A stretch of DNA of 8,657 nt, from IMG/VR virus record IMGVR_UViG_2778261299_000009, one strand, 5' to 3'. This DNA is from a virus (Duplodnaviria; Heunggongvirae; Uroviricota; Caudoviricetes). The first letter of the stretch is position 1. Each line of letters opens with the position of its first letter. The position numbers and the translations under genes are program-made. This document shows positions 4,172-8,657 of this stretch, piece after piece. Under the pieces are notes generated by a model. The model worked only from the letters and a program-made list of their open reading frames with translations, searched no databases and was not told the origin of the DNA.

Positions 4172-5137
4172 TTATCCTCTGAAACCAGGCGGAATTTCTG
4201 TATCCGGTTCAGAAATATGATTAACACAACGCTGTACAGGTGAACGTCCCAGGCGGATGACCAGTTCGTCCCATTTTTCGCGGAGCTTTGACGGGCTCAT
4301 GATGTTTTTTACCCAGAATGGATCTCGCTGAACCCGACCAAACATTTCGCAAATTTGTCTGTGGCTTCTGCCATCCAGCATCCGCATTGTGCGCACGTCA
4401 TTGGCCCAGGCAGTCCAGTTAGGCTCTTTTGGTCGCATGATCTCGCCATCATCACTGGCTGCCTGTTCGTAGAGACCCACGATCCGCCCCCAGATCCACT
4501 GCGCACACGCCAAATCCTCCCTGCTACCCCACTGGCGTTTTTTCGCACTAAACACAACCGCGTCGGAGTTCCGGGTTAAAAAATCCTGTTCAGTCGTCTG
4601 CGGGTCCGGTTGCGAAGCTTCCGGACGAAAAGTGTTTTTATTCTCTGTAGTAATCTCTGTTGTATTCTCTGTAAGATCATCAGGCCATTTTGACCCGATG
4701 ACATTGGGTCGTTTTGAACCAATGGAGCGTTTCATTTTGACCTCTTCCATCGTGTCATTTTGACCTGATGGAGCGGCGCATTTTGAACCGATGGATTCGC
4801 TCAATTTGCCACCATCTAAAAGCTCGCTCCCATAGTTGATCGTGTAGAAATTGGTCATATCGCGCTTTGATTTATTGAGCTTTTCACAACGCAAAAGCCC
4901 CAGCGTTTTCAGACTTGCAAACGCGCGCTTTAACGTTGACTCTGACCAGAATGGGAACTGTTCCAGCCATTGTTCCGTTGTGTTATAAATCCAGCGAACA
5001 CCATCACATTCCATGCCGGAGTTGGTATCTCTCAACCAGTAGTGCAGTTGTTGCAAAACAATGGCTTCGTTTAAGCCAATTTTCATTGCCAGCTGCGTGT
5101 TTATAACCAGTGGGCGTTCAGCAAAAAGAAGGCTCAT
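4172..5137 (-). CDS. Phage replication initiator, lambda-O-like (replisome organiser)
   Basis: N-terminus MSLLFAERPLVINTQLAMKIGLNEAIVLQQLHYWL is typical of phage replication-initiator N-terminal domains. The middle of the gene encodes a repeated SIGSK peptide produced by the iteron array. I placed the start at ATG 5137; the track's start at 5191 is a TTG. Confidence 0.8.
   Translation of the reverse strand: MSLLFAERPLVINTQLAMKIGLNEAIVLQQLHYWLRDTNSGMECDGVRWIYNTTEQWLEQFPFWSESTLKRAFASLKTLGLLRCEKLNKSKRDMTNFYTINYGSELLDGGKLSESIGSKCAAPSGQNDTMEEVKMKRSIGSKRPNVIGSKWPDDLTENTTEITTENKNTFRPEASQPDPQTTEQDFLTRNSDAVVFSAKKRQWGSREDLACAQWIWGRIVGLYEQAASDDGEIMRPKEPNWTAWANDVRTMRMLDGRSHRQICEMFGRVQRDPFWVKNIMSPSKLREKWDELVIRLGRSPVQRCVNHISEPDTEIPPGFRG
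4642..4672. repeat. Three direct TCTCTGT repeats at 12-bp spacing next to the iterons
   Basis: TCTCTGT at 4642-4648, 4654-4660 and 4666-4672. Confidence 0.35.
4686..4816. repeat. Iteron array (5-6 direct repeats, about 23-bp period) inside the replication initiator gene; putative phage origin
   Basis: CATTTTGAC/ACC-N-GATGG units starting near 4686, 4710, 4733, 4756 and 4779, plus a degenerate unit near 4803; the spacing is about two helical turns. Confidence 0.6.
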
Positions 5138-5639
5138 AATTCCATCCAGCTTTTTGTTGGTATTGCTGTCGATACGCAAGTTTGAAAGCAATTGCTTTTT
5201 CTATAAGTTCGTCAGTTTCACGATCCACTACGGCAGGATCAGCAAAAAGCAGTCCGGACTCCACCACATCGCCATATTCTTTGTTTAACCCGGCGATCAT
5301 GCACGTGATGCTTTTTCCGTCAGTAATTTCACGATACAACCTGAAATCATTAATCCGGATAGCCTCCATAATTGCAGGCACTAGCGCCGTGAACTTTTCA
5401 CGCTTATCCCTGGTGTCGATAGCCTTCCAGCGTTCAAATATCTTCACTCGATTAACGCCAAGCGCTCGCTGATCAATCGCGCCACCTTCATATGTGACAC
5501 GCTGAACATCGATGTTCGGGCGCTCTTTCAAAGCCCAGAATGCTTCAGTGATTAATATCGTCGCCTGCTCCTGTGTCATTCCTGGTCGACATATCCAGGC
5601 ATCCAGAGCCTCACGAGCCTGTTCAGGAGTGATTTTCAT
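5118..5639 (-). CDS. YdaT-like protein (CII-position early regulator, so-called YdaT toxin family)
   Basis: 173 aa with ATG at 5639, immediately downstream of the Cro-like gene. The segment REKFTALVPAIMEAIRINDFRLY resembles the YdaT segment REKIQKLIPAILAILPRELRHRL as I recall it. Confidence 0.65.
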   Translation of the reverse strand: MKITPEQAREALDAWICRPGMTQEQATILITEAFWALKERPNIDVQRVTYEGGAIDQRALGVNRVKIFERWKAIDTRDKREKFTALVPAIMEAIRINDFRLYREITDGKSITCMIAGLNKEYGDVVESGLLFADPAVVDRETDELIEKAIAFKLAYRQQYQQKAGWNYEPSFC

Positions 5640-5853
5640 TGTTCAACCGCCCCGCCCGCTTCGTCTTACGATATTCATCATAAACTTTGGGATCATACTG
5701 AAGCTCCCCGCCAGATGCCTCCTGTAGACGCATCGCGCGACCTTCGGGAACTAAATCCCCTTTCCAGCTATAAAGCGAAGCCAAACGAATACCTGCTGCT
5801 TGTGCAAGTTTTGTTTTTGAACCGAAATACAAAAGAGCGTCAGTTTTAAGCAT
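5623..5853 (-). CDS. dicC: Cro-like (YdaS-family) DNA-binding regulator DicC
   Basis: 76 aa, ATG at 5853 preceded by AAAGGTG. It is divergent from the CI-like repressor, and the sequence matches my recollection of E. coli Qin DicC. Confidence 0.85.
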   Translation of the reverse strand: MLKTDALLYFGSKTKLAQAAGIRLASLYSWKGDLVPEGRAMRLQEASGGELQYDPKVYDEYRKTKRAGRLNNENHS

Positions 5854-5936: not shown

Positions 5937-6344
5937 ATGGAAACAAAAAATTTAACTATCGGCGAACGCATCAGGTATCGTCGGAAAAACCTCAAACACA
6001 CCCAAAGGTCTCTTGCTAAAGCCCTGAAAATCTCCCATGTGTCTGTATCACAATGGGAACGGGGTGATAGTGAACCTACAGGGAAGAACCTTTTTGCCCT
6101 CAGCAAAGTATTGCAATGCTCACCAACATGGATTCTATTTGGCGATGAAGACAAGCAACCAACACCACCTGTTGAGAAGCCAGTTGCCTTATCCCCCAAA
6201 GAACTAGAGCTCCTTGAGCTGTTTAATGCACTGCCAGAATCAGAACAGGATACCCAGCTCGCCGAAATGCGAGCTCGAGTAAAAAACTTCAATAAACTCT
6301 TTGAAGAATTACTAAAAGCCCGTCAGCGGACAAATAAAAGATAA
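5937..6344 (+). CDS. dicA: CI-like HTH (XRE family) repressor DicA
   Basis: 135 aa with an N-terminal HTH (LKHTQRSLAKALKISHVSVSQWERG); divergent partner of dicC; matches my recollection of K-12 DicA. Confidence 0.9.
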   Translation: METKNLTIGERIRYRRKNLKHTQRSLAKALKISHVSVSQWERGDSEPTGKNLFALSKVLQCSPTWILFGDEDKQPTPPVEKPVALSPKELELLELFNALPESEQDTQLAEMRARVKNFNKLFEELLKARQRTNKR

Positions 6345-7044: not shown

Positions 7045-7384
7045 TAGCTAATCAACAAAGCTAAGGTTAGTAATTAAGGAGTTCTCCACGGGTGAGGTGG
7101 AGTGCGTGCGCCGGACACGGGTGCGCATCCGGAACTGACAGTTTACTGAAAGGATATTTCCCTGAAAAGTCAGACCATAACGCGAAAGCGCACGGCGAGG
7201 TAGCTGGTTCATAGATAGCCTGTCGTTAAATTTTCGTCGACCGTGCGCTTCCGGTTGTGGCAACCCGCGAAATGGCGCGGCGGTAAGTATGGCGGGGTTA
7301 TTCCTTCCCCGTTGAGGACACCGGGTTGTCAGGTTGACCATACGCTTAAGTGACAACCCCGCTGCAACGCCCTCTGTTATCAAT

Positions 7385-7442
7385 TTTCTGGTGACGTTTG
7401 GCGGTATCAGTTTTACTCCGTGACTGCTCTGCCGCCCTTTTT
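7385..7442 (+). ncRNA. dicF: DicF small RNA (ftsZ-targeting sRNA of Qin-type prophages)
   Basis: TTTCTGGTGACGTTTGGCGGTATCAGTTTTACTCCGTGACTGCTCTGCCGCCCTTTTT matches DicF as I recall it, and it lies between ydfC and dicB as in K-12. GGCGG/CCGCC stem plus a T-run at the 3' end. Confidence 0.7.
7399..7442 (+). terminator. Intrinsic terminator-like 3' end of DicF
   Basis: GC stem GGCGG (7400-7404) pairing with CCGCC (7432-7436), followed by TTTTT (7438-7442). Confidence 0.45.
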
Positions 7443-7611
7443 AAAGTGAATTTTGTGATGTGGTGAATGCGGCTGAGCGCACGCGGAACAGTTAAAACCA
7501 AAAACAGTGTTATGGGTGGATTCTCTGTATCCGGCGTTAATTGTTAACTGGTTAACGTCACCTGGAGGCACCAGGCACTGCATCACAAAATTCATTGTTG
7601 AGGACGCGATA

Positions 7612-8657
<1,046 letters not shown>

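Follow-up and report, generated by a model that had tools for sequence, protein, structure and literature searches.

The window (the whole stretch of DNA analyzed here, 8,657 nucleotides) covers a Qin-type prophage immunity region with the genes dicC, dicA, ydfA, ydfB, ydfC, dicF, and dicB. DicF and DicB are textbook prophage inhibitors of cell division. The coordinates of dicF in the RefSeq annotation of E. coli MG1655 (1649382-1649434) were transferred to the window by anchoring dicB, at 1649609, on position 7612. In the MG1655 RefSeq record zero features are annotated in the 174 nt between dicF and dicB, the spacer that contains the inverted repeat described here. The main features around it are as follows:

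5623-5853, minus strand: dicC, Cro-like
5937-6344: dicA
7385-7437, plus strand: DicF small RNA, 53-nt form, matched by the Rfam DicF model at 7386-7437 (76.7 bits) and followed by the terminator U-tract at 7438-7442
7612-7800, plus strand: dicB coding sequence, 62 amino acids (Pfam DicB, PF05358, E = 1.9e-40; RefSeq annotation)

A scan of the spacer for promoters and terminators returned one weak promoter-like site on the minus strand (0.7 expected) and zero terminators, although the same scan, owing to its limit on loop size, also missed the terminator of DicF. An exact 9-nt direct repeat, GTTGAGGAC, occurs at 7311-7319, upstream of DicF, and again at 7597-7605, where it forms the ribosome-binding region of dicB. 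The ydfD frame begins at 7797, overlapping the dicB stop codon, and terminates at 7898, as compared to position 7988 for K-12. Since this frame ends early and is adjoined by an IstB gene of the IS21 family on the minus strand (7908-8642; Pfam PF01695, E = 2.9e-110), ydfD was probably interrupted by an insertion sequence, and the window accordingly differs from K-12 itself. Elsewhere in the prophage, a sok antitoxin RNA was detected on the minus strand at 1763-1934 (Rfam RF01794, 104.1 bits), which marks a hok/sok-type toxin-antitoxin locus.

The earlier note had described an inverted repeat in the dicF-dicB spacer, with arms GTGAATTTTGTGATG at 7446-7460 and CATCACAAAATTCAT at 7581-7595 that match at 14 of 15 positions and enclose a loop of about 120 nt. 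The positions of both arms were borne out, as were those of the dicB ribosome-binding site (AGGA, 7601-7604) and start codon (ATG, 7612-7614). The single position without a Watson-Crick match, G7446/T7595, is a G-U wobble in RNA, so that all 15 positions pair at the RNA level. A repeat search lengthened the arms to 7447-7465 and 7576-7594, and reading the sequence base by base extended the unbroken pairing to 21 bp (7445-7465 with 7576-7596). Beyond a bulged G7597, seven further pairs (7438-7444 with 7598-7604, three of them G-U) bring the helix to 28 bp with one bulge, an outer extension that is not consistently kept in other contexts. The duplex energy of the full helix was -29.9 kcal/mol, as compared to -18.0 kcal/mol for the 15-mer alone. 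Fold prediction, which the earlier note had proposed as a check, gave a minimum-energy structure of 7438-7630 that closes on the repeat helix (z = -4.9; as good in 1 of 200 shuffles), and the same helix-closed fold was recovered in a 331-nt context (7330-7660; z = -3.3). The inverted repeat is real, but it does not enclose a bare loop: the enclosed segment belongs to a conserved, apparently pseudoknotted RNA domain of the STnc100 class. Likewise, the GTTAAC-rich palindrome that had been pointed out at 7540-7560 is present, its actual identity being the loop and 3' strand of a hairpin (P4). The domain is a folded RNA of about 130 nt that comprises the repeat helix (P1), hairpins P2, P4, and P5, a variable insert, and a putative pseudoknot:

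7438-7444, plus strand: outer extension of P1, 5' side, made of the terminator U-tract and AA; from the folds, with predicted partner 7598-7604
7445-7465, plus strand: P1, 5' arm; from repeat search, folds, and covariation, with a putative RNase III cut after about 7456/7457
7469-7484, plus strand: hairpin P2, 7469-7473 with 7479-7484 and A7481 bulged; from RNAalifold
7485-7532, plus strand: variable insert with a closing helix of 3 bp (7485-7487 with 7530-7532)
7489-7495, plus strand: CAGUUAA, putative 5' strand of the pseudoknot, within the post-P2 junction; partner 7544-7550
7533-7559, plus strand: hairpin P4, 7533-7538 with 7554-7559 and loop 7539-7553
7560-7575, plus strand: junction A7560 and hairpin P5, made of CCUGG (7561-7565), loop AGGCA (7566-7570), and CCAGG (7571-7575)
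7576-7596, plus strand: P1, 3' arm; from repeat search, folds, and covariation, with a putative partner cut near 7585/7586
7597-7604, plus strand: bulged G7597 and outer extension of P1, 3' side, including the dicB Shine-Dalgarno GAGGA (7600-7604); from sequence and folds

The assignment to the STnc100 class derives from homology searches. When queried against phage genomes with BLAST, the repeat-bounded segment (query 53-217, equivalent to window 7432-7596) matched independently at 80-86% identity in Stx and Rac-type phages, and the core alone matched in P7 and D6, two phages that resemble phage P1; nothing was annotated at the matching places of these records. In the Shigella phage 75/02 Stx the element lies directly upstream of kil, and in P7 it is preceded by two tRNA genes and directly followed by tciA (TerB family). 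A search of 7380-7660 against Rfam with E values up to 10 returned only DicF, STnc100, and two noise hits. The STnc100 model (RF02076) matched 7449-7589 with 34.1 bits (E = 4.7e-6) over model positions 21-154, helix for helix, with the repeat in the place of the closing helix of the model. This score is below the gathering score of 47 bits, and the match was absent from the scan at the gathering threshold. Nevertheless, the closing helix, P2, P4, P5 with its conserved GGAGGCACC hairpin, and the putative pseudoknot are common to both, and the element shares the habitat of the family in enterobacterial phages and prophages, being found in the Qin-type window and, among its homologues, in Stx phages, Rac, P7, and D6. 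It does not have the form of a stand-alone gene: GAGGA and the dicB ATG follow 4 and 16 nt past the 21-bp helix, and no terminator comes after it. Other classes of structured RNA were considered and rejected. A riboswitch is at odds with a P1 of 21-28 bp and about -30 kcal/mol, which is not a short switchable helix, and zero riboswitch families matched at E values up to 10; nor did any ribozyme, tRNA-like, or Y-RNA model of Rfam match 7380-7660.

A search of viral contigs for TCACCNGGAGGCACCNGGCAC, the invariant motif of P5, retrieved 136 elements (104 distinct) that fall into two architectural classes. Stand-alone elements have their own terminator about 30-40 nt downstream, often occur in tandem or beside tRNA genes, and most of them score 68-161 bits against the Rfam STnc100 model. 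Operon-embedded elements start with GGUGAAUGCGGCUNNGCGCACGCGG and lack a terminator, and a small gene has its ribosome-binding site 4-25 nt further on; every tested copy scored 31.9-45.1 bits against STnc100, under the cut-off. With R1, a covariance model built from embedded copies only (alignment A2), embedded copies scored 115-150 bits and the intermediates L141, L019, Arsenophonus, and Phlomobacter 71-85 bits, while true STnc100 genes gave full-length matches of 34-64 bits with E values of 4e-6 or better. The relationship thus holds both ways, since the Rfam model matches the element and R1 matches STnc100 genes. The window contains one copy. A scan of genome contigs with GAATGCGGCTNNGCGCNCG, a short and GC-rich pattern, yielded 120 stretches, most of which were chance occurrences in high-GC genomes; by regular expression or R1, the element was confirmed at a handful of loci, in genome contigs of Citrobacter, E. 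albertii, E. coli, Arsenophonus, Phlomobacter, and Pantoea as well as in L205 and L206. We regard the helix, the fold, and the homology to STnc100 as close to certain.

The family also included copies of unusual arrangement. In the viral contig L109 a mosaic joint lies in the 3' arm of P1, such that a dicB-type core and 5' arm are followed by a kil-type 3' arm with a bulged A and by kil itself; here the RNA element seemingly serves to link phage modules by recombination. In the E. coli contig L141 (minus strand, about 1376-1598) the order is reversed, with a short-P1 element followed by a DicF-like terminator hairpin (GGCGGUACCAGC...GCUGGUACCGCUCUUUUU), and the scores of this copy (45.1 bits with Rfam and 84.7 bits with R1) place it between the two classes. 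Arrays of the STnc100 class were found beside phage tRNA genes in L020 (2795-3798), L022 (342-1253), and L001, which is P7 (1705-2616). The P7 element is preceded by tRNA-Asn, tRNA-Thr, and a weak tRNA-like match. The position of these arrays next to phage tRNA genes suggests that the tRNA-adjacent element is processed together with the tRNAs and serves, like them, as a stable RNA.

Conservation of the helix was analyzed in A1, for which 40 distinct embedded copies were aligned with MAFFT from sequence alone. RNAalifold paired columns 14-33 with 167-187 of this alignment, corresponding to 7446-7465 with 7576-7595, which is exactly the repeat helix. The arms covary in the homologues: both-sided changes occur at 13 of the 20 pairs, and 95.9% of cells are paired. 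By comparison, 0 of 500 shuffles reached any of the five observed measures, and registers slid along the alignment were 32-44% paired. The tolerance of G-U pairs at several positions (GU 17 versus GC 19 at one pair and UG 8 versus CG 28 at the next) is in keeping with a helix in a plus-strand RNA and speaks against a function of the repeat at the DNA level. At least four unrelated arm sequences, each keeping 21-23 bp, were distinguished (the dicB/kil, L029/L034/L082, Citrobacter L133/L205, and L070/L206 types), and these versions cover the outer two thirds of P1 (AAAGUGAAUUUUGUGAUG..., CAGACCUUGCAAUGCAGUG, AGCAGGCUUUAAGGUGCGGUG, and AAAGCGAAUUUUGUGGUG..., with CAGACCUUGCAAUGCAGUG being that of L029/L034/L082). 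The median length of P1 was 28 bp with flanks in operon-embedded copies versus 7 bp (7-8) in stand-alone STnc100 genes. Some embedded copies have a short P1 (9 bp in P7 and 10-14 bp in Arsenophonus), and the fact that those of P7, L141, and L110 lie within 7-10 bp identifies the long P1 as a derived feature of a subset. Furthermore, a long P1 also occurs in the absence of an upstream DicF-like RNA (L029, L034, L082, L133, and L205), and therefore the formation of the DicF 3' end cannot be its whole purpose.

The interior of the domain is conserved to different degrees. The loop of P2 bears the family motif CUNNGCG, and the hairpin is invariant among leader-class copies, which makes covariation uninformative; it aligns with P2 of STnc100, including two non-canonical pairs. 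In P4 both-sided changes were seen at four of the six pairs. U7559 together with 7560-7575 constitutes the family signature UCACCNGGAGGCACCNGGCAC, and the middle pair of P5 covaries, being U-A in 31 sequences and G-C in 9, with additional compensatory variants in the copies of Arsenophonus and Phlomobacter. The proposed partner of CAGUUAA is UUAACUG (7544-7550) within the loop of P4. In both classes these two strands take many different yet mutually complementary sequences (e.g., CCAGUC/GACUGG, CUGGUG/CACCGG, ACUGGAUA/UAUCCAGU, and AAGGUUG/CAACCUU), and the mean duplex energy was -8.4 kcal/mol for strands of the same element versus -4.8 kcal/mol for cross pairings (Mann-Whitney p = 7e-16). The retention of complementarity between varied strands, and the greater strength of self over cross duplexes, indicates on comparative grounds a pseudoknot between the post-P2 junction and the P4 loop.

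Among homologues the core, measured from GAAT to GGCAC, is 103 to 128 nt long, and its length changes by steps other than multiples of three. A conserved reading frame in the core was for this reason excluded on either strand, including the minus-strand ORF at 7413-7748. A GTG-initiated frame in phase with dicB (7507-7800) reaches back across the RNA core, but length changes in homologues break it, which points to the ATG at 7612 as the real start of dicB. The 5' seed region of DicF, GGUGACGUUUGG (7390-7401), is complementary to AACGUCACC in the core (7554-7562) and also to codons 6-9 of dicB (7627-7636; 10 bp with one G-U). These complementarities were set aside as marginal (duplex energies versus shuffles, p of about 0.03-0.04).

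The genes that follow the embedded element, which we refer to as cargo genes, are diverse. They encode two DicB alleles, Kil, TciA/TerB, an Ash/Rha protein, and several small unknowns, among them two hydrophobic peptides of 36 residues. Most embedded copies directly follow the terminator of a DicF-like RNA or of KilS, a validated sRNA of the Rac prophage of E. coli K-12 (PMC8175672). The MG1655 copy in Rac lies between kilS and kilR (L244, 4231-4405, minus strand; R1 127.9 bits at 4257-4393) and fills the gap from the KilS terminator to the kilR start codon, a gap in which the RefSeq annotation of MG1655 has no feature. This KilS-kilR 5' UTR has the same layout as the dicF-dicB spacer, with a DicF-like terminator, a long P1 plus core, and the ribosome-binding site of a division inhibitor. 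On the other hand, the two loci have different sRNA seeds and cargo genes, a bulged A and one additional G-U pair are found in the 3' arm of the KilS-kilR copy, and one base pair of P5 is broken in K-12.

That the repeat might be an RNase III substrate, as the earlier note had suggested, found support in a duplex of 21-28 bp, in the maintenance of its length by compensatory change, and in the calculated location of a published DicF end. In Balasubramanian et al. 2016 (PMC5069750) and a 2022 review (PMC9438474), both citing Faubladier 1990, RNase III is stated to act on the full-length dicBF RNA to give a DicF of 72 nt. Counting from the 5' end at 7385/7386, the 3' end of this species falls at about 7456/7457, inside the 5' arm of P1; this arithmetic relies on those secondary statements and is good to about 3 nt, and any error below about 8 nt would leave the end within the arm. 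In the folds of 7438-7630 and 7330-7660, no other duplex spans 7456/7457. [quoted passage not shown] 2023 (PMC10448788): its start at about 7248/7249 falls in a separate predicted helix of about 24 bp (7175-7200 with 7235-7260). DicF would thus be flanked by two predicted RNase III helices, that one and P1.

Additional properties of P1 agree with cleavage. The helix provides 21 unbroken pairs, with about 20 or more bp of near-continuous double-stranded RNA being what the enzyme calls for, and its length is kept in spite of sequence change, with four arm types at 21-23 bp. In vivo, RNase III leaves a 2-nt 3' overhang and a G-C pair is usual between the cuts (PMC6212723). By this rule the partner cut would lie at 7585/7586, and the pairs between the two putative cuts, U7456-A7585 and G7457-C7584, include one G-C pair, in agreement with the rule. 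The predicted 128-nt core (7458-7585) still folds, at -39.8 kcal/mol. The dicBF operon is repressed in standard laboratory growth (PMC10448788), and two genome-wide RNase III studies refer to DicF by citation alone. Going by the secondary accounts, the cut itself has been known since 1990 and the RNase III part of this analysis is largely a rediscovery.

Taken together, we consider it probable that the repeat serves as closing helix in an embedded STnc100-class domain and was lengthened to two turns, allowing RNase III to part DicF from the core RNA and the core RNA from the dicB mRNA. Transcription of the embedded element would require RNA polymerase to read past the DicF terminator. With a P1 extended over two helical turns (21-23 bp, or longer if flanks are counted), the embedded class would have acquired an RNase III substrate, and staggered cleavage near 7456/7457 and 7585/7586 would divide the read-through transcript into three RNAs: a DicF with a 19-nt tail, which would be the 72-nt species of the accounts cited above; a folded core of about 128 nt; and a dicB mRNA whose short leader, with a 5' monophosphate, begins about 26 nt before the AUG. 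In this scheme we infer the exact cut positions, the second cut, the release of the core, and any effect on the translation or stability of dicB. A bolder proposal, which we put forward only tentatively and hold to be somewhat doubtful, is that the spacer and its KilS-kilR paralogue specify a third gene product, namely an RNase III-excised, pseudoknotted STnc100-class RNA of about 128 nt that acts on its own. If so, the invariant junctions and the GGAGGCACC hairpin of the core might, for example, bind a host or phage factor, what becomes of the division-inhibitor mRNA would likewise depend on this cut, and lambdoid phages would be reusing a three-in-one processing cassette (sRNA, structured RNA, and toxin mRNA) with interchangeable cargo.

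Other explanations give P1 a different role. The earlier note had also raised translational control of dicB, an idea for which the case is weak. In the read-through RNA the Shine-Dalgarno positions 7600-7603 are predicted to be paired (probability unpaired 0.04-0.11), they are open in the RNA 7586-7700 (0.82-0.89), and in every cargo gene seen the end of the helix lies 4-25 nt upstream of the Shine-Dalgarno. P1 might then be mainly a translational operator, in which the extended helix hides the dicB Shine-Dalgarno until it is opened or cut. However, this site is held by just seven weak pairs with the U-tract, three of them G-U, and purine-rich Shine-Dalgarnos often match such tracts by chance. 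The opening after cleavage is lost when the RNA is folded only to +60, and the covarying part of P1 (7446-7465 with 7576-7595) excludes the Shine-Dalgarno. Moreover, across 11 cargo contexts (including kil, tciA, L029, L070, L133, and L205) the accessibility of the Shine-Dalgarno did not differ consistently between full-length and processed RNAs, and after this survey its occlusion was rejected as a conserved feature. We consider the operator explanation unlikely; the folds weakly suggest translational control of dicB as a secondary effect, in which our confidence is low. We think it likewise unlikely that P1 is only a structural closing helix, lengthened to insulate the fold from the flanking mRNA and cut by RNase III incidentally. 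Such a role would be in keeping with the presence of P1 in all family members, with the embedded copies in which it is short (P7, L141, and L110), and with the conservation of the core fold, including the putative pseudoknot and invariant junction bases, well past the needs of a nuclease site. Yet a length of about two helical turns (21-23 bp) was reached by independent lineages, which is far above what closing a multiloop takes and above the 7-8 bp of stand-alone genes, and the RNase III-dependent end, as given in the secondary accounts, would map within the helix.

A role of the repeat as DNA, whether as a palindrome bound by protein, as a cruciform, or as the joint at which phage modules recombine, was judged very improbable. 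The element does sit at a module boundary, and L109 shows recombination within it, but the arms are 110-120 bp apart, their sequence is wholly replaceable provided that complementarity stays, and the interior covaries as RNA helices and a putative pseudoknot. In addition, pairing is kept via G-U wobbles, which are A-C mismatches on the other strand and meaningless in duplex DNA. Finally, an inverted repeat with at least 14 of 15 Watson-Crick matches within 200 nt occurs 0.083 times per dinucleotide-shuffled window (about 8%), so that its frequency alone is modest evidence against a chance match without function. The match does extend to 21 unbroken pairs, and chance is excluded by the homologues: 13 of 20 of the P1 pairs are compensatory in 40 homologues, and 0 of 500 shuffles equal this, which leaves a functionless coincidence a negligible probability.

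RNase III stems that form from distant flanks are known from the precursors of 16S and 23S rRNA, the early mRNA sites of T7, and the N leader of lambda. In these cases the flanks of a structured RNA pair over about two helical turns, and a staggered cut by RNase III separates the products of the transcript. The probable RNase III-cleaved closing helix at dicF-dicB differs from them in that the RNA predicted to be excised is about 128 nt long and apparently pseudoknotted, with an Hfq-type sRNA upstream and a toxin mRNA downstream, and in that, of its two cuts, just one has backing in the published accounts cited above. The upstream RNase III site of dicBF that yields the 190-nt DicF (Faubladier 1990, as cited in secondary accounts; PMC10448788) is on the same transcript, is cut by the same enzyme, and likewise has its putative cut in a long predicted helix. 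That helix, however, is a local hairpin, whereas P1 is the closing helix of a conserved domain. The upstream site was confirmed by primer extension in 2023, while the 3' site goes back to the 1990 work.

Members of STnc100 (RF02076), which include EcOnc27/sRNA103 downstream of stx2 and are related to PasD, live in the same phage and prophage habitat as the dicF-dicB element. Both have a closing helix, the CUNNGCG loop of P2, the putative pseudoknot, and a P5 of the form CCNGG-AGGCA-CCNGG with flanking UCACC...CAC. Unlike STnc100, the element has no terminator of its own and is placed inside an early-left operon, where the terminator of an sRNA precedes it and a small gene, often toxic, has its ribosome-binding site after it; its P1 measures 21-28 bp versus 7-8 bp, and its P2 and P4 loop have conserved sequences of their own. 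Hfq association has been reported for stand-alone STnc100 members (EcOnc27; PMC12711010). STnc100 is among the most frequently annotated enterobacterial sRNA families, without an assigned function (PMC9029176), and it is also described as lacking an established function in bioRxiv 10.64898/2026.05.13.724894 and PMC12370729.

Three aspects of these results appear to be new: the identity of the dicF-dicB spacer as a pseudoknotted relative of STnc100, the reuse of this module before cargo genes that are interchangeable and often toxic, KilS-kilR in K-12 being one instance, and a lengthening of P1 that is specific to one class. As the RNase III cut was already known, the overall gain is moderate. 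Still, the analysis supplies a structural basis for the 72-nt DicF, links the dicF-dicB locus to the STnc100 family, and suggests that read-through transcripts yield a third RNA. The module is present before kilR, kil, tciA, and other small phage genes, and its action probably bears on how prophages restrain their toxic early genes; it also provides a tractable K-12 setting in which to study the STnc100 fold.
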